A program made the translations under genes and the position numbers. A stretch of 64,000 nucleotides of DNA. It comes from Octopus sinensis. Its lineage: Eukaryota. The stretch spans positions 98,270,001 through 98,334,000 of the forward strand of contig NC_042999.1 of the NCBI RefSeq assembly GCF_006345805.1, given 5' to 3'. The notes under the pieces are model-generated. The model made no database searches. It saw only the letters and a program-made list of their open reading frames with translations, and was not told the origin of the DNA. Shown here in pieces: positions 8,968-60,769 of the stretch. Position 1 is the first letter of the stretch. Every line of letters starts with the position of its first letter.

Positions 8968-9029
<62 letters not shown>

Positions 9030-9030
<1 letters not shown>

Positions 9031-9440
9031 AAGTATCACTTGAAAAGGAAAGTGAGAGTAGAGAGGCAAGTTTTGTCTAGCGAATGTTTCAAAAAAAGAT
9101 GGGTGAATGTAGCAAGGATGGCACGTATGAATGACGAAGCCACCTTGAGCATAATCCTATGAACCTGGAAAAATTTTAAACAGAGGGTTACTTACTTGCA
9201 AATAAATGTGTTAACATGTGACATTATTGACTGAGGTTATCGTGGTCTTTTCCGTAGGCTTTTCTTTCCACGGATAAACCTTATCTTCTTCCCCCTTTAC
9301 ACTTTACATCATGACATTTCTGTGATATATGAACCCTATTGATCGAAAACCTACCCTATATTTTTTATCTCCAAAAAGTAAAAGCTCTACTTTGTAATTT
9401 GTCCCGTCTGTGTTCAGCCCTGTGTGGCTAATAAAGAAAC
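9030..9440 (+). mobile_element. 5'-truncated Tx1-clade (L1-like) LINE: ORF2 C-terminus plus 3' UTR
   Basis: KYHLKRKVRVERQVLSSECFKKRWVNVARM matches the C-terminus of the RT element at 35921-37900 (RKVRVER...RWVNV); ends in aataaagaaa; flanked by (TA)n on both sides. Confidence 0.75.
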
Positions 9441-9941
9441 ATATATATATATATATATATATATTATTTTTTTCCTTTTCATGTTTCAGTCCTAAGGCTA
9501 TGACCAACATTCCCATCACTCGCAGTCGAGGCATTCACTAACTGTACTCATGCGCTGACATAAACATCCTCTTGACGCTCTCACACAAGACTTAGAGGAA
9601 CATCCAGAATAAGATTAGAAGCAGAGCTCTGATGTACATACTTCCAGGATTCCGAAAATAGTAAAATAGTACACAATCGAAAGCAAAAAACAAATGGTGC
9701 GCATTAGAGTTGGTACTTCTGTTGGACCAGAATAGAGCTATTTATCCTCCTTTCTGTTCACTTTCTGACCTTAGTCAAGTTCTTCTCGTTCGAGAACAAA
9801 AGGATACTAGAGCTTGTCCGGCAAGTACTTCGACATGGTCACATGGTACTTACGGATGTTGCCAGACTCCAACTGCTCTCTCTCTCTCTCTCCTAATCAC
9901 GTTTTTTTTTTTGTTTGCACCTAATATGCTTATGTATCAGT

Positions 9942-15155: not shown

Positions 15156-15595
15156 AAGGCAGCGAGCGGCTAGAATCGTCACCGCACCGGAAAAATTGCT
15201 TTGCAGCATTTCATTCGCCTTTACGTTCCGAGATTCCGGGGTCGACTTTGCCCTTCATCTTTTCAGGGTCGATAAAATAAATACCAGCTGGACACTGACA
15301 TCGATTTAATCGACTTACTCCTCTCCCAAAATTACTTGGCTTGTACCAAAATTTGAAACCAATATTAAACTCCAAGGCAGCGAGGAGGCAGAACCGTTAG
15401 CATGTCGGGCAAAATGGTTAGCGGCATTTTGTCAGTTTTTATGTTCTGAGTTCAAATTTCGCTGAGGTTGACTTGCCTTTCATCCTTTCGTGGTTCGATA
15501 AAATAAGTACCAGTTGAGCACTGGGTGTATTTAATCAATTTAGCCCCACCTCGCCCAAAAGACTGCGGGCCTTGTGCCAAAATTTAAAACCAATA
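15156..15595 (+). mobile_element. Two head-to-tail SINEs (GCCTTTCATCC core family)
   Basis: Each has an aaggcagcgag head, gtcgac..gcc(t/c)ttcatc core and ccaaaattt.aaacc tail. Confidence 0.85.
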
Positions 15596-15715
15596 CTATA
15601 TCGTATTGTATTATATTTTCAAAGTTCTTCAAGCGTGTTGAATACTTCTTTGGATTTACTGGCACCTTACCTGCATAAGTACATGTATGTGAGCTACTTC
15701 TATATTAATAGAAGG

Positions 15716-20223: not shown

Positions 20224-20763
20224 TTAGATGTTATTTAAATCTAGAGAAAGTGTACGCCAATTTGTGAAGGCAAAAAAAATTTCGCTGTTAATAATGGGTT
20301 GGCCGGCTTTGATGATGAAGAAAATTTCATTGATACATAAAGAGCATTTCTTATTTCTACTATTGTATACGGGTGCAGATGTTAGTATTTCCCAATCTAA
20401 TTTAAAATCTATGTTCTTACTCTTGAGTTCCCAGATATACCTACTTAAACCCGTAGAGTTCATCCTATTTTTATTTTTAAAAGTATATCTATGAAAGTTT
20501 AGCCGTTGTTTTATACTATTTTTAGTTGCACCAATGTACACCCTGCTATTATATTGTGTATTTACAGTGCATTGGTAAACCACCTCTCTCCTCAGGCATT
20601 TATTACCAAACACACATTGATTCTTGCTTCTGCAATTGCAGCCATTAACAGATTGAGATTTAACCCTTGCAGAAATCCCCGTAGCCCTATTTCTGTTGAT
20701 ATTATTACACTTATTTTCACTACTACCCATGTTTATCTTTCTATCATTATAGAAGCAATCCAA
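20224..20763 (-). pseudogene. Penelope-like GIY-YIG endonuclease domain (Neptune-like)
   Basis: CNCRSKNQC..NKCL..VVYQC..VYIGAT..KQRLNFH..STGLSRYIWELK..CSLCINE. Confidence 0.9.
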
Positions 20764-20788
20764 TTTCTTGTTGTTGAAGGAGGAGATG

Positions 20789-20879
<91 letters not shown>

Positions 20880-28579: not shown

Positions 28580-29690
28580 TAACTCCAATTTTGATACAAA
28601 GCCAGCAATTTTGAGGTGAAGGAGCAAGTCGATTGCAGCAACCTCAATTCTTGACTGGTACCTTATTTTATCGACCCTCGAAATGTTAGCTGCAACAGAA
28701 TTAATACTCAGAACAAAAAGAGTCGGAAAAAATACCCCTAATCATTTTGACCGACGTGCTAACGATTCTGTTAGCTCATCGACTTTATGGCTTCAAATTC
28801 TAGCACAAGGCCAGCAATTTTAAGGATAACGGGGTAAGTAGATCACGTCGATCACATTGCTCAACTGGTCCTTATTTTATCGATATCAAGAGGATGAAAA
28901 GCAAAGTCGACCTCGGTAGAATTTGAATTCTGAACGCATTGAACCGGAAGAAATACCGTTAAGCATATTTTCCCGACTCTCCAACAATTCTGCCAGCTCG
29001 CCGCCTACTAGTGAAAATAATAACGGTTTCAAATTTTGGCACAAGGCTAGCAATTTTGGGGGAGGGGATAAGTCGATTACATCGACCCCAGTTCTCAACT
29101 GGTACTTGTGTTATTGATCCTGAAAGGATGAAACGCAAAGTCGGAATTTTGAACTCAGAAGACGCAGACGGACGAAATGCCGCTCAGCATTTTGTCCGGC
29201 GTGCCAATGGTTCTATCAGCTTGCTGCCTTATTAGTGAGAATGATAACAAAATGAAAGCATATATATTCGGATGTTTTGAAACGCCGTGAAATAATACTG
29301 TCCAGAAGATGCATGAAATTTCTATGGAAGACTGAAGCAACAAGGGCAGCGGAGTAGTAAAGTCGATAAAGAGATATGCGATATTCATTGCAGTATTGGC
29401 TACATCCATTTAGATTGTGTGTTCAAATCACTCCGAGATTTTACTTTCCATCATTCCTAAGTCGATAAAATTGTAGCACAGAATATTGATTTCACATTTT
29501 GATATAAGGCCAGCAGTTTTGGGAGAAGAGCCAAGTCGATTCAACTGGTACTTATTTTATCGACCGCGAAGGGATGAAAGGCAAAGTTAACCTCAGCGGA
29601 ATTTGAACTCAGAACGTAGAGACAGACAAAATGCCGTTAAGTATCTTACTCGGCCTGCTAACGATTCTGCCAGCTTGCTGCCTTCAGTAG
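28580..29690 (-). mobile_element. Head-to-tail array of at least 4 SINEs (GCCTTTCATCC core family)
   Basis: Repeated tttcaaattttggcacaaggc...ggatgaaa...ctgccagctcg units, all on the minus strand. Confidence 0.88.
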
Positions 29691-29779: not shown

Positions 29780-32230
29780 ATCAATGGAAGGATATTGGGT
29801 CGATTGCCTAACAGTATTTAGTTAGGTAGTTTTTACGCTCTAATTTCAAGCCTCAAGGGGTCAACTTTACCATTCAGACTTCCAAACGTTGGGATTTTGG
29901 GTTCATTTAAGAAATCGTTGCTGTTGTTGTTGGTGGTGGTGATGATGTTGTTGTTGCTTCTATAAATGAAATGGTTGGGAAGTGGGGAGAGCATCATGAA
30001 CAGTAGAGTGCCAGATATAATGCCTTGTAGTATTTAATTAAGTGTCCATACGTTCTAAGTTCAAATCCCGATGGGGTCACGTTTGGCTTTTATCCCCATC
30101 AGAGTCGATAAAAAAAAAAGCCATGGAGTGGGGTCGATTCAATTGATTGTACTCCTTCTTTTCTTTTCACGTTAGAAGTCTGTGTTCATGTGCCGATGAA
30201 AGAAAACTTTGTATGGGAAAAAGAAACGAAAGCTTTACCAACCAATAATAATAATACGTTCCAATATTATCAGTGATGGGATGATTTTTCAGTGGTAATA
30301 AAAACCTGATGGTAAACTCAGTGGCCCGAAAGCAGAATACCGCATAATCTAATGTAAATAGAAAACACAATAAGTATACAAAGAAGATGCAACATACAAT
30401 ATTACTGCATCACAATAAGATGTTATGCCGTTTGTGTTTTTCTAAGTCCAAGAAGCAGCGAACATCAATGCATTCACTGATTAGTATTGATATAAGGGAG
30501 ATAACTCTTTGCTTCACACTTGAACCGCAGGTTTTAAATGTTTAATACCGTTGTTATTTTGATTAGTAATATTAGAAACAATTAAGCAATTAGCGACCAT
30601 TAAAATAAGAACACCAGACAAAATGCTTAGCTACGGGTGTTTACGTTCTCAGTTCAAATACTGCCAAGGTTGACTTAGCCTTTCATTTCTCCGAAGTCGG
30701 GAAATATACCTAAAATATAATACCTGTCAAATACTGAATCCCTTAAACCGACAATGCCCTTCAGTAGAGTGGATAGGAGAGAAGAGAGACATCTATATTG
30801 AGGACGGCACTTTTGGGTCTGCGGTTTAAGACTGTGTAGGTCGGCGGCCTATATAGGTTCAATAGCAGTATCGTCTTTAGACGTGAGCACACTGAGAAGT
30901 GACCCGGCGAGGGTGTCATACGGATCTAGGGAGCTCTTGGGTCTAGGAGCCCAATTCTGATTTCTGTATGCAGTAGTTTTATATTGATAAATAAATACTG
31001 TAGGGTGCAGTGCATTTTTCATGCTTTTGAGGTAAACAAAATAAGTTATAAGTCAAGTTTTGAAGTTGAAATGATCGACTATGTACATCCTCAAAAGAAT
31101 TGTAAATGAGGTAATGATCCTTCAGGCCTTGTGCCTATAGTTGAAAGGATTATTATTATTATTATTATTATTATTATCATTGTCGTCGTCGTTGGTGTTG
31201 TTGTGGTTGTTGTTAAGGTGGCGAGCTGGCAGAACCATTAGCACGCCGGGCAAAATGCTTAGCGGCATTTCGTCCGTCTTTACGTTCTGAGTTAAAATTC
31301 CACCTCCTTATCCCTTCCTTCACAATTTCAGACCTTGTGCCTATAGTAGAAAGGGTCATTATTATTATCACTGAGGCGGCGAGCTGGCTGAATGCTTAGC
31401 GGCATTTCGTCCGACTTCACGTTTTAAGTTCAAATTCCACTGAGGTCAACTTTGCCTTTCATCCTTTCGGGGTCGATGAAATAAGTACCAGTTGAACACT
31501 GGGGTCCATATAACCGACTTATCCCCTCCTTCAAAATTTCAGGCCTTATTATATTATAAATATTATAATTATTATTAAGGCTGCGGGCTGGAAGAATTGT
31601 TAGCACGCCGGGCAGAATGTTTAATAATAATGAAATTATTGTATAGTGCTCAGGTGCACCACAACTTGTCAAAAGTGCGTATAAAGCATATGTAGTAATG
31701 TACAAATGTCTGGAAAGTGAACAGTCTATGAGTCAGATATATGCGTGCGTGTGTATGGAGGGGAAAAAATCAGATGTAGTGTTGGCGAATCTCAGGAAAC
31801 ATGGAAGTTTTGAAGGATGCAGTGCTCTGACAACTAACAACTGATGCCAGCAGTTTGTTCCATACTTCAGCAACTCTTAGCGTGAAAAAATGTTTCCGAA
31901 AGTCATGGGAGCTGTGCTGTTTTCTGACTTTGTAAACATGTCCACGGGTGTTAGACAGGTGGAGTTTGAAAAGGTACTCAGAGTTATTGTTAGTAAGATG
32001 GTTAATAACTTTATGGGTGTCTGCCAAGTCAGCTGCCAGACGTCAGAAGCATTTCGTCCGGTTTTACGCTCTGAATTCAAATTCCGCCGAGGTCGACTTC
32101 GCCATTCATTCTTTCGGAGGCCGATAAAGTAAGTACCACTTGAGTACTGGGAACGATGTAATTGATTGACCCCCTCTTCCAAATTTCAGGTCTTGTGCTT
32201 ATATTAGAAGGGTTATTATTATTATTATTT
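29780..32230 (+). mobile_element. Series of plus-strand SINE copies of the same family
   Basis: Heads or cores at ~29800, 30000, 30600, 31215, 31375, 31578 and 32046; tails gccttgtgcctatagtagaaagg(att)n. Confidence 0.75.
31622..32040 (-). mobile_element. 5'-truncated CR1-clade LINE nested in a SINE
   Basis: NTRGHVYKVRKQHSSHDFRKHFFTLRVAEVWNKL..VVS..ASFK, a canonical CR1 C-terminus; the host SINE is split (head 31578-31621, remainder from ~32046). Confidence 0.9.
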
Positions 32231-33150: not shown

Positions 33151-33221
33151 AACGTCCTCTTCAGATAAAATATATCTGTGCGTTTATATTATGTAAAGAT
33201 TGTTTTTATTATTTTAATATA

Positions 33222-33697
33222 TCCCCGATGAAATCATAAAGCATGGCCTCGACGCTACAGGTTTCCGTCCCAGTTTGAGCCAGTAGAGCTAGACCGAGAG
33301 GAGGGTAAAAGGCCAGATGGCATGAACAACATTTTCATTCTGCGGCAGTAGGCCCCTCATCTGGGATGCCGTATGCTGTGACATCTCCAGCGGCAACCTG
33401 GTGTGTACAATTACTAATCCAGGTTTCGTTGCTTGTCAAGCCGAGAAAGGCATACTGTCTAAATATCGGCCGCTCTCTGACAGATTTGTGGTCGAGCTTG
33501 TGGTAGTGGAGAACTCCGGTGTTCTCGGCCGCCGGAACACATCTCTGGTATCAGGGCGGATATGACTATCCACACCAGTGACGCAGCTAATAGAGGAGCA
33601 AGTGGAGAGACCTCCCCCACGAGCATATTTTTCAAAACGTACGCCTTTTCAACAATTTTTTAAAACTCTTTAGTTCATTTGTGCGATCAAAGTCGAA

Positions 33698-35459: not shown

Positions 35460-35921
35460 AACGTCCTCTTCAGATAAAATATATCTGTGCGTTTATATTA
35501 TGTAAAGTATTTGTATAAATTCTTTTTGTAGTTGTGCGTAAATTATTATTCTTGTTATTCTAATATATCCCCGATGAAATCGTAAAACATGGCCTCGACG
35601 CTACAGGTTTCCCGTTCCAGTTTGAGCCAGCAGAGCTAGACTGAGAGAAGGGTAAAAGGCCAGATGGCATGACAATTTTTTTCATCCTGCGGCAGTAGGC
35701 CCCTCATATGGGATGCCGTGTGCTGTGACATCTCCAGCGGCAACCTAGTGTGTACAGTTACTAATCCAGGTTTCGTTGCTTGTCAAGCCGAGAAAGGCAT
35801 ACTGTCTAAATATCGGCCGCTCTCTGACAGATTTGTGGTCGAGCCTGTGGTATTGGAGAACTCCGGTGTTCTCTGCCGCCGGAGCACATCTCTGGTATCG
35901 GGGCGGAGATGACTATCCGCA
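35460..35921 (+). mobile_element. Duplicate of 33150-33575 (flank plus CRE RLE fragment, copy 2)
   Basis: Long near-identical direct repeat; ORF 35718-35912 is the RLE region. Confidence 0.9.
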
Positions 35922-37900
35922 AAAGTGTTAGTAAAGAGGTTTTCCTTGTCCCTGATACTCTGGTAGGTGAACCATTCTTTATAGATCTATCCATGACAAT
36001 CACTACATCACGTGATATATCATAGATAGGGTTGGTAAAGAACCTAGAATAGATAGGGCCCTAATTAGTTTAGATCAATCAAAAGCTTTCGGTAGGGTTG
36101 GCCACCAATTTTTAGCGGCTGTCGTTACAATGGTTGTCTTCCTGACGGCTAGTTTCGGTCCCATCTTCAAAGGTTGAATCGATGTAATGTACAGTGACAT
36201 TTACTCAGTGCTCAGAGTAAATGATCATCTATCACAGTGGTTCCCAAACTTTTCCAGGCTGCCGCCCCCTTGGTTCTAAGGCCACATTCCTAGTGTCCCT
36301 TACCATCACTCACCATCACAGACATAGACCATTTTCTACGGCAAATTCAAAACAACAATATTTCACAAATTAAAACTTAACCTAATTAAGCCTTTTTTTA
36401 CATTCATCGCCCCGTTTTGGTCACCCCATTACTGTCCCATTTTTCTTTAATGCCCTCCTGGATCTTCCCCCCCCCCAGGGGGCGGTACTGCCCACTTAGG
36501 GAACCGTTTAGTATAATGAATTCGATCCGTTTAGGCTACCTCCTCTCTCCCCGCTGTATGTTTCAAGGGTCATTCTACATGAATTAGAACGTGGGTGAGC
36601 TGTGTCAGCATATACGGTGACGTTACCTTAATAGTGTCGGATAACAAACGCATCGAGGTGATCGACACTACTTTGAAGGAACACGAAGCGGTGACAAGAG
36701 CAAAGATTAACCAGAGCTTTGTGGTGGGGAGGCAGCTTGGTACCTGGAGAGGCAGATCCATACTACCCGACAGCGTTGTGTGATGCTGGATAGACGGACC
36801 AATTAAACTGCTCGGAGTCTGGTTTGGTCCAGACTTCCACGTGAACTGAAACTGGAAACTGGTGTGATATGACTAGTAATCTTACTATTCTCACCCAAAA
36901 TGATCTCAGTTTCCGAATGCCTACATCACATCTGTCATCTATTACCACTCGACCATCATTCCTTACCCCCGTTTCATTGCTGACAAAAATGGAGCGCTTG
37001 CTCTTCCACTTTCTGTGGAGGAGACGAGTTTCACTGTTCAGCCAGGTCATTTACTGTCAACATCCACAGCGTAGAATCTGTGCATACCAAGGCTAATAAT
37101 AGACAGACATGCACTAAGGCTACTTCATCTGCAATGTTTCCTTGGCGACTAGCAGGTATAGTCGCCGTTTGTCAGACTCGCTTTTCCACGACTCATCTCT
37201 TTAATTGAGCTGCAGTCCTGGATCAAGCTTAGACCGAGGAAGGGTATTTAGCATCCAGACTGTTGTTTGCCAGTCGGGCATTACAGTCGGTGGAAACATT
37301 ACTATAGCGTTTAATAAGGGATTAGTGTCGGACAAGATCGAGATATGCTCGCGGAGACTCTGGACGTCAACGAAAATCAGCTGGCTGATCTGTTCCGGGG
37401 GACTTTCGGTTCAAGGTCAATGGATAATTTACTGAGATCCTTCTGCTGGGATGGGTATTGCTGATAAAATGAACCTGCCTAAAATGCACGTAGATCGAGG
37501 AAACTGTCATGCACGCACTTGTAATGAGCCCGAGAAATGCTTACTTTTGGAGTTATGTTGAACAAGTGCTATCGCATGTAGGATGGAACCGGTTATCGGC
37601 CGGCTCCAGTGTGAAGATTACATCGCCGCCTTCTGTGACTGGGAACGATAGGCAGTTTTCCCCTGCCTGGGGACTAAATGTTAAAGAGGTTGTGAGGTGG
37701 ACGAAAGTAAAAATACTAGAAACAGACACCTTCGTCATCGGTCAGACACTCATCGACTTTTTAAAGTTTCAGTTGTATAGGAAAGTGAGGGTAGAGAGAG
37801 AGAGGTGCTGCCACCTCAGAAAATTTGTTCAAAGGTGGGTGAATGTAACGAGAAGGACCCAAGTGAGTGGACCTTTTCTAAAATGGTGCCTGTATAACGG
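35921..37900 (+). mobile_element. Tx1-clade LINE ORF2 (RT plus C-terminal region), degenerate
   Basis: RSIHDN..ALISLDQSKAFGRVGHQFL, SIRLGYLLSPL (=SVRQGCPLSP), SIYGDVT (=YADD), LLGVWFGPD, RKVRVER..RWVNV. Confidence 0.88.
36235..36505. mobile_element. hAT Charlie-like MITE nested in the Tx1 RT
   Basis: CAGTGGTTCCCAAAC ... GGGAACC; RT reading VNDHLS|EPFSI is rejoined when the insert is removed. Confidence 0.8.
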
Positions 37901-42399: not shown

Positions 42400-43775
42400 A
42401 AATAAATCTAGAAGAAAATATATATTCACAGATCTTGTCAGTGTCAACAGTGACGCTGGTATAATCTGTTACGTGAAGAGATTGAAAAAGAAGCATAAAG
42501 CCTGTCCAGACGGCTTTTGTGTGCCATACCATGTCATTCAAACAAGACTTAATGAATCTACTGGAAATATTAACATATCACGCCTATGCTCGTCAACAAT
42601 AATAATGATTTCAAATTTTGGCACTAGGCCAGCAATTGCTGGGAGGAGACAAGTCGATTACATCGACCCCAGTGCTCAACTAGTACTTATTTTATCGATT
42701 TTAAAAGGATGAAAGGCAAAGTCAACCTCAGCAGAATTTGAACTCAGAACATAAAGACAGGCGAAATACCTATTTCTTTACTACCCACAAGGGGCTAAAC
42801 ACGGAGAGGACAAACAAGGACAGACAAACGAATTAAGTCGATGATTATATCGACCCAGTGCGTAACTGGTACTTAATTTATCGACCCTGAAAGGATAAAA
42901 GGCAAAGTCGACCTCGGCGGAATTTGGACTCAGAAGGTAGCGACAGGCGAAATACCGCTAACGTCTCTGCCAACTGGTCACCTGGTCAACAGTGCTAATA
43001 ATGCCATCATGGAATTATAGGAAGAACTCTGAGTGTTACAACTATTACACACAAATCAAGGAAAGCTGAAATAGTCTACATAATAGAAATTTGAAAGAGA
43101 AACTGTCAGCAGAAAGTTATGCATGGGTATACATCCCGCAACCCATCCCGTCTCACTGAGAAAAATACGCTTTTGATACTCAAGAGCATCAAATAACTAC
43201 TAAATATATGACCAGCAAGAGAGATAAGGAACTCCTCTAAACTTTCACGTTGCGATAGAACATGTCGACTGTACTTTACTGGGGTGGGAAATAGCCCCAC
43301 ATCATCAGCAGTTGTCCAAAAAACGTCTGTAAGTTACTACTTACACATAAGACATGACATTGTTGCTAAAACCATTTACAATACTATTTGCAAGAAAGCT
43401 TTTTTCTGACGGAAAAACAAAAGCATACCAGACCCAGAATATATTCAAGTCTTTAAAAATAAGAATTACTGGGAGAATATTCCAATAAAGATAGGTTGCA
43501 AAAAATGCTGATTATTACAGAGGCTGGCTACCCGGCAGATATAAAACTGAGGGAAAAGAGAACTATAATGAGAAAATGTTAATCTTATAGCCAAGCTGTG
43601 TACTTTCATTTGTATTTATTTTCAGTTGTGCATATAGCTGTATAATATGAGATTTGCATAAAAACTTAGAAAAGATGGGATTCTCAAAGAAAGAATAAAG
43701 CTTGCTAATTCGCGTCCTTCTCCAAATAAAAGTGATTAGTGGTACAGTGAAGACTTATAAAACATTCCAAGAATT
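42400..43775 (+). mobile_element. R4/Dong-clade fragment F, interrupted by SINEs
   Basis: QKVMHGY, QEHQITTKY, CDRTCRL..HIISSCPK..IRHDIVAKTIY, SGTVK. Confidence 0.75.
42600..42985 (-). mobile_element. SINE nested within a SINE of the same family
   Basis: 15-bp direct repeat gacaggcgaaatacc at 42756-42770 and 42942-42956 brackets a copy carrying the Tx1-like tail. Confidence 0.8.
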
Positions 43776-47174: not shown

Positions 47175-47274
47175 AAATTCTCCTTCTGGTGTTGTGACCA
47201 AATTAATTATTGTGTGTGAAAGCCAAATCTTCAAGTGAAAGGGCAATTGATTGAAAAAGTTTCTTAAAGAAATC

Positions 47275-48552
47275 ATGAAGACGAATATCAACATTGATGT
47301 TTTCCAGTGTGGAATATGCCAAAAATACTTTTCCGACAGCAATAGCTTAAAGGTTCACATGGAAGTGCACCCGGTCAAGAAACTGTACTTTTGTGATGTA
47401 TGTGGCATATCCTGTGTTGAAGAATATCTCTTGAATAACCACATGAAAATTCACACAGGAGAAAGACCGTATATTTGTGATATATGTGGTAAAGATTTTG
47501 TGAAAAAATCTCAGTTGAAGAAACATTCAGAAATACACAGCAGTGACAGCCTCTTTCACTGTGATATTTGTGGCAAGAATTTTGTCCATGCATCTTCTTT
47601 AAAGAAGCACATACGAGTGCATACTGGAGAAAAACCGTTCCAGTGTAATGAGTGTGGGAAAGAATTTGTGCAGAATTGTCATTTGAAACAGCACCAGAGA
47701 CTTCATACTGGTGAGAAACCATTTCATTGTGAATTTTGTGGCAAAGACTTTGTACGAGGTTCTGATTTTAAGATCCATACTCGAAGACATACTGGAGAAA
47801 AACCATTCATTTGTAATATATGTGGGAAAGATTTTGTTGATGGATCTTCATTGAGAAGTCACATACGAATTCACACTGGGGAGCGACCATATCATTGTGA
47901 GATATGTGGTAAGGATTTTGTAATTTCCTCTTCGTTAAAGAAACATATAAAAACTCATACTGGAGAGAAATTTCACTATTGTAAAATATGCAGAAAGAAA
48001 TTTGTTCAAGCGTATTCTTTGAAAATCCACATGAAAGTTCACACTGGCGAAAGTGCATTTAAATGTGAAGTGTGTGGGAAAGATTTTCAGGAAAGTTATG
48101 ATCTGAAAATGCATATGAAAATTCACACTGGTGAGAAAACTTTCCACTGCGATACTTGTGCTAAGGACTTCTTGCACGAGTTCTCGTTTAAGAGCCACAT
48201 GAAAAAACACGAAGGAGAAAAACCAGTTGAAAGTGAGATGCGTGTAAGTGATTTTTACCAAATGTCCAACTTAGCGAATCATATGAGTAAATATACGAAG
48301 ACTAAGATTTTCCATTGTGAAATATGTAGGGACGATTTTATGGAAGAATCTAGCTTGGCAAAGCACATAAAGATCCATACAGATGAAAAGCCATTTCAAT
48401 GTAATTTATGTGGAAATGACTGTGTTGAAGCATCTATTTTGAAAATTCATATCCAAGGCCACTTGGAAGATAAACCTCTCATTTGTAAAACCTGTGGAGA
48501 TGAGTTCCTCTTTGAATGTGACTTAGAAAAACATGTTGAAATGCATGTATGA
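47275..48552 (+). CDS. Tandem C2H2 zinc-finger protein (425 aa; 15 repeats, 14 intact), no effector domain
   Basis: Uninterrupted ORF of CxxC-x12-HxxxH repeats with TGEKP-type linkers; first ATG at 47275 (the track start at 47251 is TTG), with an in-frame TGA immediately upstream of 47251. Confidence 0.93.
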   Translation: MKTNINIDVFQCGICQKYFSDSNSLKVHMEVHPVKKLYFCDVCGISCVEEYLLNNHMKIHTGERPYICDICGKDFVKKSQLKKHSEIHSSDSLFHCDICGKNFVHASSLKKHIRVHTGEKPFQCNECGKEFVQNCHLKQHQRLHTGEKPFHCEFCGKDFVRGSDFKIHTRRHTGEKPFICNICGKDFVDGSSLRSHIRIHTGERPYHCEICGKDFVISSSLKKHIKTHTGEKFHYCKICRKKFVQAYSLKIHMKVHTGESAFKCEVCGKDFQESYDLKMHMKIHTGEKTFHCDTCAKDFLHEFSFKSHMKKHEGEKPVESEMRVSDFYQMSNLANHMSKYTKTKIFHCEICRDDFMEESSLAKHIKIHTDEKPFQCNLCGNDCVEASILKIHIQGHLEDKPLICKTCGDEFLFECDLEKHVEMHV

Positions 48553-51502: not shown

Positions 51503-52262
51503 ATCATCATCATCGTTTAATGTCTGTTTTCCATGCTGGCATGGTTTGACTGGGGTCTGGAAAACCAGGAGGCTGCACCAAGCTCCAGTCTGATCTGGCA
51601 GTGTTACTACAGCTGGATACCCTTCCTAACACTGACCACTCCGAGGGTGTAATGGGTGTGTTTTATGTGCCACCGGCACAGGGGCCAGGAGAGCTAGCAT
51701 TGACCACAATCGGATGGTGCTTTTTATGTGCCACCAGCAACATTGGCCATGTTCAGATGGTGCTTTTTACATGCCACCGACACAGGGGTCAGAGCTACAA
51801 TTTCAATTTGATTGTAATTTGATTTGATTTTGATACTGATGTTAATGTTGATGTACTTGACTCATTAGGTCTCATCACGCACAGTATGTCGCCCTATGAT
51901 CCAAGGTATTTTTGAGTGGGTTGATTATGCAACACTGGCATAGGTTACAGCTGTGAACTCACTTTATTTGCCGTGTCTTCTCAGTCACAACATACTTCCA
52001 GAGGTCTCAGTCTTTTGTCATTGCCTCTGTGAGGCCCATCATTCAAAGGTCATGCTTCACCATCTCATCCCATGTCTTCCTGGGTCTCCCTCTACCCCGG
52101 GTTCCTTCCACTGTTTGGGAGTGGCACTTCACACAGCTTTCCTTGTCCATCTGCAGTACATAACCATACCAACACAAACATCTCTCTTGCACACCACATC
52201 TAATGCTTCTTATGTCTAACATTTCTCTCAGGGCACTTACTCTCAGTCGTGTGTGTACACTG
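51503..52262 (-). mobile_element. 5'-truncated RTE-clade LINE
   Basis: VQERCLCWYGYVLQMDKESCVK..VEGTRGRGRPRKTWDEMVKHDL plus 3' UTR ending in (GAT)n. Confidence 0.9.
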
Positions 52263-52266
52263 ACAA

Positions 52267-52308
<42 letters not shown>

Positions 52309-52378
52309 TCATCATCGTTTAATGTTCATTTTCCATGCTAGCATGATATGTATATATATCTGCATATACATCTATGTA

Positions 52379-53130
52379 CAGTGTGGACAGTATTCATTGC
52401 CATGATGACTGTCAGGAAAAAGGAAAATTTTCTGAGATATATTTGTCAAATTTGGATCAGTTTATCTTCATGAGATTTTCTGTAGATCTCACTCAATGAA
52501 CCCACCTTTGGCATCGATGAAAGCCTCCATGTGACCACTGAACTGGTCACTAGCCTTTGTCACTATCTCCTGTTTTATGCCCCCGAAGGCCCTGGTAATC
52601 CTGGCCCTCAGTTCATCCTTCATTTTGCAGACGGATTTGTTGGTCTCTCATTCCACGACACCCTACACAAAAAAGTTAAGTGGGTTGCAGTCAGGCGAGT
52701 TGGGAGGCTAAATGTCAGGTGCTGTATGTTTGAAAAAATTCTTCAACAGCCAGGGTTTTTTGGCTGCTGTGGCAAATTGTAGATTCTTACTGCCACATGT
52801 ACAGCTGCCGGTCCGATACAGAGCTTCACAACTTTGCTCAGAATGTGGATATAGCCATTAGTGTTCAGCCAGAGGCTCTTAGGGAAGAAGTTGGGTGGCA
52901 TAATGTTACCTTCACTGCTGACAACACTGAAGATAATGATTGTCGCTGGAAATTTCATCTGCATGACGCTGGGCATGTCCTGGGATGAGACAGTAAGCCA
53001 CCTGTTGTTCTGGAAGTTGATATTCTGGTTTTGGTAGAAACTCTTCTCATTGGAGAAGAACCACACCATACTTGGTTCCAGCAGGTGTTTTGACTTGTTG
53101 AACAGCTTTTTGATGTGCTCAGAAATGATC
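52379..53130 (-). mobile_element. Tc1/mariner (maT/DD37D-like) transposon 3' portion
   Basis: WFFSNEKSF..NFQNNRWL..KFPATIIIFSVVSSEGNIMPP..YIHILSKVV and SPDCNPL; TA|CAGTGTG terminus at 52377-52385. Confidence 0.85.
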
Positions 53131-53575
53131 AGAGAAACTCGAGAGAAGGGCTGCAAGGAAAAACAAGAATCCTACCGGGTCCGGATTGTGCCCCCTATAA
53201 CCATGGCTTTTATGCCCTTAGTAGCCTAATAAACTACTAAATGACCCAAAAAGAGCTAAGCTGCTAATATGGTCATCTTCAGAGACATGAAGGATGCATG
53301 TCGTATGTATATTGTTTGGGTTTTTTTAACTCAATATAACAGACACATCACAAATCCTTTCAGGGAGATGATCCTACTCAATACATAGAAAAAGTGTAGG
53401 TAGAAACTCCATAAGGCTTACCTGGTGCAATCTATGGACACATAAAGGTGAAGCAGTATCAGAAGAAGGTTATTAGGGAAAGTAGTCTTTGTGTGTGGCA
53501 GATGTATATGTACAATAAACACCAGAAACGTAAGAAGTAACAGATAGCTTCCATTACCTAGGTGACCAAGTCAGC

Positions 53576-54260
53576 AGTGGAGGTGGATGTTCTGAGAGGG
53601 TAGTTGCTAGAATAAGAATAGGATAGGCAAAGTTCAGAGAGCTTTTACTTCTGTTGGTAACAAAGGGCTTCTCTCTTAGAGTGAAAGGCAGATTGTATGA
53701 TGCCTGTGTGTAAACAACTATGCTACATGGCCATGGAACATTGCCTGTGAGTGCAGGGGACATGCGAAAGTTTGAAAGAATGAAGCTAGTGTGCTTCACT
53801 GGATGTGCAATATGACAGAGTGTCTTGAGAGAAAAATTAGATATAAGCAGCATCAGATATAGTGTGAAAGAGAGAAGACCTTGCTGGGATGGTCATGTGA
53901 TGCATATAGGCAAGTACAGATATGTAAAGAAGTGCCAAAGCCAAGAAGACATGGGATGAGGTGGTGAAGTATGATCTTTGGATGTTGATTCTCATCCAAT
54001 GACAAGTGACTGAGACCTTTGGTGCTTTGCTGTGCTTTAGAAGACATGTCAAGCCAAGTGAGATTGTAGTTGTGGCCAGTGCTGGTTGCACATAAAAGGT
54101 ACCTACTACACTCTGTGGAGTGGTTGGCATTAGGAAGGGCATTGAGCCATAGAAACTAATCTGACACAAACTGGAGCCTGGTGCAGCTCTCTGGCTTATC
54201 AGTTCCAGTCAAACTGTCTAACCCATGCCAGCTTGGAGAACAGATGCTAAATGACAATGA
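53576..54260 (+). mobile_element. 5'-truncated RTE-clade LINE
   Basis: YLGDQVSSGGGCSERVVARIRIG*AKFRELL..KGFSLRVKGRLYDAC plus the shared 3' tail. Confidence 0.88.
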
Positions 54261-54428: not shown

Positions 54429-57294
54429 TACACACACTTACATTATGTTATGCTAAAAAGCAGTGCACACGATACCAGAATTTTTGACTCGGTCAAATAT
54501 ACAGACTACTTGCAATTGTTGTTAGAGTATCCGTATTGCAGTCTGTACTGGCATTGAGTCATATGAATTGTAATCATGGAGTGAAACCAAATAGTGATAT
54601 TCAAAATATTTGGTTTGACTTCATTATTACAACTGTGTGTATATATATATATATATCATCAGTAGTTCATGTATCCAATTAAGGCTTTTTTGCCAGTACA
54701 TGGTGATCACTTATAAGTTTATAATTATTATCATTTACAGAATATATAATATGTGTGTGTGTGTGTGTGTGTAACAATTGAAGAGGTAGAACTCTTAAAT
54801 TTCTTGCAGGAGGTCACAGTGTTAGAGAAGATGAATAAATTATCATTATATACACATCAGTGAGCAGACATTTGATATAAATATAAGGTGTAAATTAGGA
54901 ATAATAGCTGGTGAATATATAAATAAACAGGGTTGAAATTATTCATTTTCTAGAGGTAATTGAATAGGTAGTTGTATTTTAGGGTAATGATTATAAATTG
55001 ATAATAATTCAAAATTTTTTACAATATTTGAAAAAATATTGTAAGGGGAATTTTGCAAGGGAAAATATATGCAGTAGTTTAAAATTTATGTGTAAATATG
55101 TAGATAAAAAAAAAAAAACAGGATCCAAGGGAATTGGTGGTGGATTGCATTTGTAAGAATTGTATTTATTGGTGTAAAGTTAGTATGGTGTTGTGAGAAG
55201 AGGTTTCATACATTTCAGGCAAAGTACTTTTTTCAAGATGGAGTAAAGTCTGGTATGTTCTTTCTGACTTTGGCTTGGCTCTCATTCAGAACTGAAAAAC
55301 ACATGTACCATATGTTTCTCTTCTCTTTAGAAGAACTTTCTGTCTGAAATACTAGAAATTTTCCTTCCCAGTGATATACTAACATAAGTAATTTTATTTT
55401 ATAACAATGTATAAACTTATATATATAAAACATAACAACATATATGGTATATTATATATATATAATATAACATTAGATGTATATATAACATGATATATAT
55501 GTGTGTGTATATATATAACATATCATATATGGTATATTATATAATTATATATATATATATAAATTATATAATATACCATATATACATACATACATAAATA
55601 CACACATACATGTATATATAATGGATAAGGTTATTGAATTACTCAATTTTTTAAAAATCTTTACTCAATCTGTGTTGAGATGTAATGTATATAAATATAT
55701 ATATAAGCATTAAAAAACATTACATCAGTATACTGAAAATGAAAAAAAATAAACATTTCCAAATATTTGTATATGCTTGTTTATAGTGAATGTCCACTGA
55801 ACTACCTTCAAAGTTTGAATATTGTTGCCATGAACTTTGCAGCAGTCACTTAAACTTCTTGACAAAAGTTTACAACAAATTTAAGAAAATAATAATCTTG
55901 CATTAATAAGAACAATATTAACATTGTTGGTTTAAAATTAATGTTGGACAGAATTAGTAATAAAATAATGTTAAACTGAAAGGCTTTTCATTTTATTTGA
56001 CTTTGTTTGAAATATCTTCTGTTTAAGCTTAATGTTTCAATACATTAGTTCTTGAACAGTTCTTGTTATAATTAGGACTGTATTATGTAAATGGGTCCTT
56101 CTTAATAATTTGAAGATTTTGGTTCTGTTATTTGCAGGTTAAGTGATCCCATAGAGCTTCCTTGCTCTGTGAAAAGTATTTAGACTGGATGGTCACAAGA
56201 GCTTTTGTAAGCTGATAGATATTCATTTCCACATTTCCATCAGAATCTGTTGAAGAACTGCAGGTGTTTGGTACTCTGAGTAAATGCACTACAAAAAATA
56301 AATAAATAAATAAAACAAACCTTGAACATGATCCAAACCAAACTAAAGTATACAGTAGCATCATGAATTAAAGGCTTTGTTACTTTCAAAGAAAAAAGGA
56401 TGCTGCTATGAAGTTGGTGAAAACAATGGAATCTGTGACAGGTTGACAAGAAACAATGGTTGTTGTATCAGCTGATCAACTGAAATGATGGAAATGTTTG
56501 GATGCCTTTCAAAACTAAGACTTGTTGTTTTGTATCAAACTTGTCCTGTTAATGTGAATATGTGATCAAAAGCATTCATGCTATAATCATCTTGTTTTGT
56601 TTTCAAAGTGTATAATGGAATATATCATCCAATGTATCCTTTCTTTAACATGTCAAAGTATAATTAACATCATTTTTCAGCATACATGTTGAATTTTTCA
56701 GACCAAAATTTACACCAAAAGAGTATAGCAAGACAATTTTGGAGAGCTAAAAATTCCATGTGAAATACAGCAGGATTTGGAAAGATTGATATGATATTTG
56801 AATGTTTATTCTATATGTTTTACACTATATACTACATTGTGTTGTATGCTGGAAAATATAGTTCTTGGCTGCTATTTCTAACAGATCAAGAGTCAGCAAA
56901 GAGACTTTCTTCACCATTGGTTTGTCATAGATCTGTTAACTGGGTGAAATTGTAGAACTTGTGGGATTGGCACTAGGCAAAGTGTCATGAAGTTAAACAA
57001 GGCTGCATTTTGAAAAAGAAAATTTTTTCTTTTTTCATGAAAGGCATCCATTTTTACCTAATTTTCGGTATTTATTTCAAATCTATTCTTAGAACTTACA
57101 CATCATGTCAATTGATTACAGTAACATATTTTAAAATTTTAGCAATAAAGTGCATATGACATTTATACATTAGTCAAAGAAAAGTTGCAATAATATGGTA
57201 TTCCTGTTTTATAGGAAGAGCTGACACTTTTCACTTATATTTACTACATCAAGTTTATAGTTACGAAAATCAGATACATTTTGTGAAAAAATAA

Positions 57295-57478
57295 TTGGTT
57301 TCAAAATTTTGGCACAAGGCCAGCAATTTTATGAGAGGAGGTAAGTCATTTTATTGACCCCTAAAGGATGAAAGGCAAAGCTGACCTTAGCAGAAATTGA
57401 TCTCAGAACACAAAAATGGACAAAGTGCCACAAAGCATTTTGTCTGGTGTGCTACTGATTCTGCCAGCTCACTGCCTT
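57295..57478 (-). mobile_element. SINE (GCCTTTCATCC core family), CpG-decayed
   Basis: Family head, core and tail recognisable, with CpGs replaced. Confidence 0.85.
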
Positions 57479-59380: not shown

Positions 59381-60069
59381 ATTGCTTTTCCTATACTCAC
59401 TAGTAGTAAGTAGCCATATCAAATTACATCTTTAACTCAGTAATTACTGACAACTTTAAAAAATACAACATAAAATGTATGCTGGAGTCCCTGAAGCTTC
59501 AACCAACTAATGCTAAAAATATACAAGGAAGCATATATCAGTATTGTAATACAACTATCCTGTGGAAACATACATTTCAAACTGTTCTCATACTTCCATA
59601 ACATTTCAAAGTTTACAGCCTTATTCTTTATGAGATGAAATTTATCTGTTTAAGAACCTTTTTCTATCTTAACCCTCTGAGGCCTGAGCTCCTGTCTCTA
59701 ACTTTACCCTCCACTTGGGCTCCTGAACAAGAAAAAAGAAAAAAGTTGCATACACAGCTCAATAGTAACGATTGCTGGCAAATAATGGACAGAATTGACT
59801 GCATCTTTTTTTTTTTTTTTTTTACATATGTTGTCCATTACTGCTTTATTGGGAGTATAGCAGAAATAATGTTTAACCCCTTCCCGTTGTAGCGGAAATA
59901 CGGAGCAACAGGGTTAAGAATGTATGTCAGTAACTGTCTCTTTTTAGGGAGTTAATGTGGAAAAGGTTTCCTTATATTATGACTGAACCATATGTTTTAT
60001 AGTGGGGGTAGTTATCTGTCTTTATCGTTAGCCTTACTGAAGGGCAATGGATACCAGTTAGTAGAATCA

Positions 60070-60306
60070 AAAGGCGGCGAGCTGGCAGAAACGTTAGCAT
60101 GCCGGGCGAAATGCTTAGCGGTATTTCGTCTGCCATTACGTTCTGAGTTCAAATTCTTCCGAGGTCGACTTTGCCTTTCATCCTTTCAGGGTCGATAAAT
60201 TAAGTACCAGTGTTTCACTGGGGTCGATGTAATCGACTTAATCCCTTTGTCTGTCCTTGTTTGTCCCTTCTGTGTGTGGCCCCTTGTGGGCAGTAAAGAA
60301 ATAAGA
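60070..60306 (+). mobile_element. Young full-length SINE with Tx1-like tail, nested in an older SINE head
   Basis: CpG-rich; 14-bp TSD agttagtagaatca (60056-60069) / agttagcagaatca (60307-60320); the host SINE continues to ~60530. Confidence 0.9.
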
Positions 60307-60769
60307 AGTTAGCAGAATCATTAGAGCATTGGACAAAATACCTTATAGAAATTAATCCAGCTCCTTACATTCTAGGTTCCAATCCAACTGAGGTCAACTT
60401 TGCCTTTCATCTTTTCAGGTCTGATAAAATAAAGTACCAGTACTAGTAGAAAATACAGGGTATGATATAATTGAATTACCCTCTTCTCAAAATATCTGGC
60501 TTTGTGCTAAAATTAGAAAGCAAGAATTATTAGGCATACTGAAGGCTAATGGATGGCAGAATCATTAGAGAATTGGACTAAACACATAACAGAATTTGTC
60601 CAAGTTCAATACATACTAAGTTCAAATCCTGCTATGGTTGATCAAAAGTATTGGGGTCGATGTAATCATTTTTTCCCTCCTCCATTCTCTTATTCTGTCA
60701 TTATCTCTAGGAGTTACAAGAGTTTATCTCAGTTTTCAGAAAAAACTTTTGTAGATATGTTTTGTGTTG

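Follow-up and report, generated by a model that had tools for sequence, protein, structure and literature searches.

An abundant octopus SINE shares its 3' tail with a clan of Tx1 LINEs, one family of which inserts at a fixed position within the SINE

Background

In animals, L1-group LINEs are the standard example of relaxed transcript recognition, which relies on poly(A). SINEs with tails derived from the L1 clade are few: a 2012 survey recorded three among 58 SINE/LINE pairs, from maize and Chlamydomonas (Ohshima 2012, PMC3472496), and Table 1 of Ohshima 2013 (PMC3747384), in the part available to us, lists neither a Tx1 partner nor an animal L1-group pair with a common tail. Target preference is frequent, though not general, among Tx1 elements, and several target-specific families have been characterized, namely Kibi, Koshi, Tx1L (which resides in Tx1D) and Keno (as described in the available part of PMC4494074). 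In molluscs, the partners named for bivalve SINEs in the accessible sections of PMC11481361 are CR1, CR1-Zenon, L2 and Nimb, and the octopus repeat papers, in the sections at hand, list L1-Tx1 elements and SINEs without pairing them (PMC13282606, PMC8967140, PMC10294476). Across the open literature, with Repbase and Dfam outside the scope and sources available in part, we found no description of an animal Tx1/SINE pair sharing a tail or of a Tx1 element targeting such a SINE. The accessible portions of PMC5381506, PMC8869645, PMC8967140 and PMC3531059 hold nothing on a Tx1/SINE pairing, and the tail motifs reported below are absent from one supplement of PMC13282606 and from the first 12 files of PMC10294476.

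Here we analyze a stretch of 64,000 nucleotides from Octopus sinensis (contig NC_042999.1, positions 98,270,001 to 98,334,000), hereafter the window. A preceding sequence-only reading had proposed that the last 42 nucleotides of a LINE in the window match the tails of two SINE copies, and that this SINE subfamily is mobilized by a stringent-type Tx1 element, an uncommon pairing; the absence of a Tx1 partner from the published table mentioned above bears out the last point. Using genome-wide searches, we show that the tail homology is a property of whole families, and that it extends to a clan of Tx1 LINEs, one family of which uses the SINE itself as its target.

Findings

The LINE in question, which we term family A, is represented in the window by a 5'-truncated copy on the plus strand (9030..9441), a 410-nt 3' end comprising the last 43 codons of ORF2 with the stop (9031-9162) followed by the 3' UTR. 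It lies inside a (TA)n tract (~8979-9028 and 9441-9464), its C-terminus is 97.7% identical over 43 amino acids to that of a young family A copy, and no Tx1 protein matches were found in the window upstream of 9031. The terminal 42 nt (9398..9439, +) contain a predicted hairpin of 4 bp with a 6-nt loop (9416..9429, +), directly followed by an AATAAA-like motif. An ungapped scan of both strands of the window with this 42-mer reproduced the gapless alignments claimed earlier, to 42773-42814 on the minus strand (34/42 identical) and to 60260-60301 on the plus strand (33/42); apart from the query itself, these two SINE tails are the only places in the window that reach at least 24/42. The best matches of 500 shuffled 42-mers ranged from 22 to 28 of 42, with 28 reached once, which rules out a chance origin.

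Both SINE copies also have the 14-15-bp target-site duplications (TSDs) attributed to them. The minus-strand copy (42771..42941) is joined to site 50 of an older SINE and is flanked by a 15-bp exact repeat (42942..42956 and 42756..42770); its host SINE runs on from the latter repeat to ~42599, where it ends in a sister tail of the ATT type described below. The plus-strand copy (60071..60303), a full-length element of ~230 nt, sits inside the head of an older SINE-like copy between 14-bp repeats with one mismatch (60056..60069 and 60307..60320, 13/14 identical). Since both tailed copies are thus nested in older SINEs, their TSDs are themselves SINE sequence.

To see whether the 42-nt segment is the true end of a LINE family, we searched the genome (G000, 2.72 Gb) with family A and obtained 4416 candidates, 40 of which were scored and gave 47 matches. 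The 42-mer was present at 36/42 or better in 26 of 29 further copies selected with a query lacking the tail (range over all 29, 27-41), and it was also present in 14/14 loci chosen by their endonuclease region (28-39/42). Reciprocally, the tail was found in 29/29 other SINE copies selected by the SINE body alone (32-38/42). When tails were sorted by BLAST, SINE-type tails followed a SINE body in 29 of 30 cases and A-type tails followed LINE A in 29 of 30, with the remaining two settled by eye. The tail-blind copies, the endonuclease-chosen loci and the tail sorting together rule out a SINE fragment fused to a single LINE copy, and the segment stands as a genuine family end. The exact 24-nt tail pattern of family A occurs 7,541 times in the genome, that of the SINE 94,983 times, and the window LINE tail matches the SINE majority tail at 37/42.

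Full-length family A elements are ~6.3 kb long and encode an ORF1 with a weak zinc knuckle (zf-CCHC below the Pfam cut-off, E 0.006) and an ORF2 with endonuclease, reverse transcriptase (RT) and zf-RVT domains; Exo_endo_phos, RVT_1 and zf-RVT exceeded the Pfam cut-off in three loci (L123, L115 and L117). Among solved structures, human L1 ORF2p comes closest (E 9e-24, versus 3e-11 for R2). Searches with the LINE proteins returned no protein named Tx1 and no homologue of ORF1, and among named relatives the one closest to the LINE protein comes from Argonauta hians; our own trees were built without named Tx1 references. The assignment of the window LINE to the Tx1 clade is supported by another route: compared by eye, the RT of a young family A copy (L117) is letter for letter that of O.sinensis_4_LINE in the alignment of PMC10294476, an element that the available part of that study classed as L1/Tx1 by RTClass1. 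The clade named by the sequence-only reading is thereby upheld.

As to its insertion sites, family A has (TATC)-type repeats at 22 of 30 3' flanks (copies taken in genome order) and, in a count by eye, (TATC)n at ~18 of the 46 5' flanks that could be read. Several copies form head-to-tail stacks at intervals of ~4-6 kb, inserted in the microsatellite tails of their predecessors (L110, L111, L114, L117 and L120). In the two cases with clear unique TSDs, a TAT start lies within ~2 bases of the shared end. Divergence, in a small sample with subfamilies mixed, is 6-33% over 21 of 30 alignable copies. Family B, at 72% amino acid identity to A and with intact ORF2s, occupies (ATT)n, and its 3' end consists of a related hairpin followed by AATAAA; its copies also stack head to tail in microsatellite tails with ~4-6 kb spacing (L154, L155 and L161). 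The 5' UTR of family A contains a perfect 11-bp stem with a 13-nt core that is the same as in the SINE tail hairpin (L123, ~1095-1125), and a hairpin similar to it is found in the family B 5' UTRs examined (L154 and L157). The window additionally contains an older, broken Tx1-type ORF2 fragment (35983..37892, +) with ~40-55% amino acid identity to families A and B and no recognizable tail downstream.

The SINE is a short (~230 nt), high-copy, non-coding and TSD-flanked element. Unique TSD-like repeats of 8-18 bp were found in 12 of 30 copies, with low-complexity repeats in nine and none in the other nine, and its classes are on average 6-8% diverged from the majority in a small sample. ARAGORN detected no tRNA in five SINE loci, and Rfam gave no SINE match at E up to 10; the SINE has what we take to be A-box-like and B-box-like motifs, and from these promoter motifs a tRNA origin is likely. 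Its body presumably resembles a Meta/Deu-type domain. Most SINE copies in the window have the same body and a different tail, with a 3-bp hairpin, the same loop and then ATT repeats (among others 15560-15600 on the plus strand, and 29020-29065, 42599-42650 and 57290-57340 on the minus strand); this ATT-type tail resembles the terminus of family B, which targets (ATT)n. A further SINE subfamily is extended at its end by GGTA, the four bases with which the site-50 target begins, and is followed by unrelated DNA (L165, L179, L180, L189 and L307), as if it had arisen by read-through of a nested copy.

To determine how widely the tail is distributed among LINEs, we searched with a divergent RT-type pattern, which yielded 683 matches, and examined ~60 stretches. 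These loci comprise further families that form one clade at 100% bootstrap. Most of them end in a hairpin of 3-5 bp with a loop of ~5 bases, followed by an AATAAA-like motif; a 3-5-bp hairpin was present in 22/22 ends examined, a count for which the script took the best hairpin per end with no control. The stem sequence varies between families with the pairing kept (GCC/GGC, GCCC/GGGY, ACC/GGT and GTCC/GGAT), and in 52 SINE tails the hairpin and following motif are nearly invariant. Older family C copies and family E have exactly the SINE hairpin. That of family A differs from it in stem register and loop, and in family D the hairpin is different, but the 26 nt upstream of the hairpin in the SINE are matched exactly. 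Local scores over the 62-nt SINE tail were 71 for one family E copy, 70 for old family C, 64 for the window copy of family A, 52-54 for family D and, for the commonest C subfamily, which is young, 46 (29/42), against a 99th percentile of 27 in a shuffled null; a score of 116 at L276 was set aside as a separate SINE copy after the E element. No sampled family is the best over the whole SINE tail: ungapped, A leads at 37/42, with the old C tail at 35/42 to the SINE majority tail. In RNA folding, the LINE 42-mer reached -7.9 kcal/mol (z -2.7) and a 66-nt LINE stretch was non-significant (z -0.3), and the two window SINE tails fold no better than shuffles (z -0.2 and -0.4).

A matching end of their own was found in none of the 36 non-Tx1 RT loci examined (best 18-23/42, local score at most 24 versus the null 99th percentile of 27); two high-scoring ends proved to be separate downstream SINE copies. 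This control was made up of CR1-like and RTE-like elements, a single Penelope-like one and some from unplaced contigs, several of them short of their own 3' end; the clade labels are tentative ones based on motifs. The CR1-like and RTE-like ends sampled do not match the tail, in support of the sequence-only reading. A pattern joining the A-type upstream sequence to the SINE hairpin had no match in the genome, and one for the D-type upstream sequence had 91, with the SINE hairpin in none of the 30 examined. On this comparison of ends, with an incomplete catalogue of Tx1 families, the tail is common to the octopus Tx1 radiation and not to one partner LINE.

Family C bears on the SINE in a different manner, as it is inserted into it. 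Its full-length copies (~5.35 kb, 98-99% identical) are found between SINE positions 1-66 and SINE positions 50-230. The family C tail pattern has 177 matches in the genome, and 28 of the 30 examined were LINE C, the remaining two being SINEs joined to site 50. A strict rule places 26 of the 28 LINEs at SINE position 50; for the two left over, inspection by eye shows the sequence running on into SINE body. The target duplication is ~16 bp, and in 9 of 14 loci it is exact over 13-16 bp. The first duplicated base is a G/C variant, and its two copies agree in 14/14 loci (3 G and 11 C; chance 1/364), one further locus with no readable 5' end having been left out. At these loci the host SINE heads are 82% and the host remainders 90% alike in pairwise comparison, versus 99% for the LINE 3' ends, and together with the agreement of the flanking variant this indicates that the insertions are independent. 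The possibility that SINE 1-66 is merely a fixed head of LINE C is likewise ruled out, as the heads vary and the variant base agrees across each insertion. The SINE hairpin and the same target are also found in older C copies (~86% identity to young C), so that a C lineage of suitable age existed; in this small sample the family spans 86-99% identity. In Pfam, zf-CCHC, RVT_1 and zf-RVT exceed the cut-off in family C. Its RT shows one visible residue difference from O.sinensis_31_LINE, which stands in an octopus block with three RTClass1 Tx1 elements in the published L1-superfamily subtree (a matter of list order, not topology), and family C groups with families D-O at 100% bootstrap. It is a rare element, with 177 pattern matches versus ~95,000 SINE tails.

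Three other families have contexts of their own. Family D, a Tx1 element of ~5.4 kb, has a fixed insertion site within the head of a different SINE, in 26 of 30 loci by rule and in more by eye (L365-L394 and L395-L414). Within the 3' UTR of this LINE, 9 consecutive nucleotides are complementary to the target site, and over 30 loci the UTR base and the junction base co-vary (24 A/T, 5 T/A and 1 G/A), with few lineages represented and a duplication on both sides in only one A-variant locus; as a lead, complementarity between RNA and target might choose the family D site. Downstream of the family E copies lies an unknown repeat that they have in common (L241, L249, L278, L280, L281, L283 and L284), one family F copy lies in (TC)n (L250), and TAACCC repeats follow one further copy (L294).

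We then classified where the SINE itself lands, using 77 distinct tail sites in genome order on one contig (C1). The largest class, with 26 sites, is joined to site 50; 17 sites are of the TAT type, 12 have GGTA followed by other DNA, 8 have TAAGAA, with several of these junctions lying in a SINE head, and 14 have something else. The minus-strand SINE of the window belongs to the site-50 class and the plus-strand one to the TAAGAA class. The SINE therefore has site 50 in common with family C, and it shares the TAT core loosely with family A: in TAT-class copies, unique TSDs start within ~2 bases of the shared end (~9 of 30 cases), though the (TATC)n flank usual for family A is absent from the listed TAT-class sites. 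At 32 chain junctions, neighboring SINE units share rare variants both in positions 50-66 (16 versus 7.0 expected) and in positions 67-134 (26 versus 10.3 expected). Because this sharing extends past the duplicated 50-66 stretch, 26/77 overcounts independent insertions, and some SINE chains stem from duplication or read-through dimers; the shared-variant result itself fits fresh insertion and duplication alike. A link between SINE subfamily and landing class seen in a first sample did not clearly hold in the genome-order sample.

Among the other features of the window, a 433-amino acid open frame with a C2H2 zinc-finger array (47251-48552, +) is likely an exon of a host gene. Fragments of other retroelements occur at 20224-20820 (-), 31776-32042 (-) and 52022-53797, and include a CR1-like 3' part (80% identity) and weak RTE-like pieces. 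One frame among them contains what we take to be a GIY-YIG-like motif and had no Pfam match. A local duplication of ~450 bp at 86% identity links 33153-33580 and 35462-35927. Elsewhere in the genome, the best RVT_1 matches are near-identical LINEs confined to unplaced contigs (such as C1794, C2292, C8702 and C12597; L415-L444). The sequence after one of them resembles rDNA, and these contigs may come from another organism.

Proposed mechanism and alternative explanations

We propose, with a probability of roughly two in three, that several Tx1 families, which have a small predicted hairpin at their ends in common, copy the SINE in trans. The largest class of copies would likely be the work of family C, and those at TAT sites likely that of family A or of a relative outside the sample. 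The firm parts of this reading are the family-level tail homology, the Tx1 identity of the LINEs, the fixed target of family C in the SINE and the presence of SINE tails at the same site. By analogy with target-primed reverse transcription and known stringent pairs, ORF2p would bind the hairpin and AATAAA-like end of the SINE RNA, a family-specific endonuclease would nick the DNA and thereby fix the site, and reverse transcription primed at the nick would generate the 12-18-bp duplications. As the ends of the families are homologous, several of them could serve one SINE. As family C cuts inside the SINE, every new full SINE copy would also be a new landing site, and nested insertions could build chains with a 184-bp period. 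The term stringent is here deduced from conservation of the tail. More tentatively, and at somewhat less than even odds, these elements might constitute a self-feeding circuit, in which a ~100,000-copy SINE depends on stringent, hairpin-dependent recognition by a Tx1 clan, one LINE of that clan cuts the same SINE and the RNA of family D helps to choose its site; passenger and driver would then share one landing site that is multiplied by the passenger.

The earlier claim that a Tx1 element mobilizes the SINE thus fares well at the level of the clade, but its one-to-one pairing with the LINE of the window does not, given that the tail is clan-wide, that C and E have the SINE hairpin, that D matches the 26 nt upstream of it and that C shares the commonest landing site. 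If family A were nevertheless both tail donor and main mobilizer, its leading ungapped match to the SINE majority tail, its abundance, the position of the window copy in (TA)n and the TAT starts near the shared end, seen in its two clear unique TSDs and in ~9 of 30 SINE cases, would all be accounted for; the difference in stem register and loop, the preference of A for (TATC)n and the fact that TAT sites make up only 17 of 77, the largest class being the family C site, make this distinctly unlikely. An extinct or unsampled Tx1 family, of which A, C, D and E are relatives, could instead have donated the tail and driven the SINE. Measured against the living families, the SINE tail looks like a mosaic, sharing its upstream 26 nt with D, its register with A and its hairpin with C and E; this is consistent with such a source, as are the 6-8% divergence of SINE copies versus the 98-99% identity of the commonest C subfamily, which has drifted from the SINE tail, and the limited coverage of ~60 of 683 divergent RT-type loci. 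Against it, the older C copies already combine the SINE hairpin with the same target, and none of the 30 examined D-type upstream matches led to the SINE hairpin, so that we regard this source as unlikely.

A third possibility is that the tail is only a Tx1-derived relic, the SINE being copied by any active LINE under relaxed recognition and its chains arising mostly by tandem duplication or read-through dimers. The weak fold signal of the SINE tails, the variants common to neighbors beyond the duplication and the subfamily with extra GGTA, as read-through would yield, all accord with this, and a hotspot for insertion into itself is described for Alu, which depends on relaxed recognition by L1 (in the available part of PMC2836564). 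It is nonetheless very improbable, as the hairpin and motif are nearly invariant in the 52 SINE tails and are kept across Tx1 families with otherwise different UTRs, and the chain junction is the same base as the family C target. Copying in trans by several Tx1 families remains our preferred reading. If a radiation of Tx1 elements does combine a conserved 3' hairpin with an abundant passenger, this would bear directly on the question of whether the L1 group was ancestrally stringent in its recognition, and would point to what likely drove much of the expansion of SINEs in octopus. The related families, some of them intact in part and each with its own target (microsatellites or one of two SINEs), also offer a natural series for studying target choice by the endonuclease and the RNA tail.

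Comparison with known systems

The described systems resemble the octopus one in separate respects. Crocodilian SINEU was likewise inferred to be moved by Tx1, from the target preference it shares with Tx1-Mar; there too the target is another mobile element, and different Tx1 families were proposed for different SINE sites (Kojima 2015, PMC4494074, in the sections available). In those sections, SINEU differs in its U1/U2-derived heads and poly(A) tails, with no LINE tail reported in common, and in targeting a Mariner DNA transposon; the octopus SINE, in contrast, has a hairpin tail in common with the LINEs and is itself targeted by one family. Like the target-specific Tx1 families, the octopus families A, B and F are found in (TATC)n, (ATT)n and (TC)n, respectively, and C and D at fixed repeat sites; unlike Kibi, Koshi, Tx1L and Keno, the repeat targets are SINEs, one of them with the LINEs' own tail.

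With respect to the tail, the closest parallels are in the L1 group: ZmSINE2 and ZmSINE3 with LINE1-1_ZM in maize, and SINEX-3_CR with L1-1_CR in Chlamydomonas, each share a 3' end of ~45-50 nt with a hairpin, which is conserved within a LINE lineage of that group (PMC3472496 and PMC3747384, available parts). These stringent pairs differ in being from plants and algae, and no targeting of the SINE is described for them in the accessible text (Ohshima 2012, 2013). The mollusc SINE-LINE pairs show LINE-derived tails on tRNA-type SINEs and tail swapping (PMC11481361, PMC4824008 and PMC4758252, in part), but in the portions available Tx1 is not named as a SINE partner, with 0 occurrences in PMC11481361 and PMC4824008. 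Finally, Alu likewise has a single-position hotspot for its own copies; that hotspot is statistical and operates under relaxed L1 recognition, and the accessible part of PMC2836564 describes no LINE that inserts only there, whereas the octopus SINE is entered by family C at the very position where its own tailed copies most often land.
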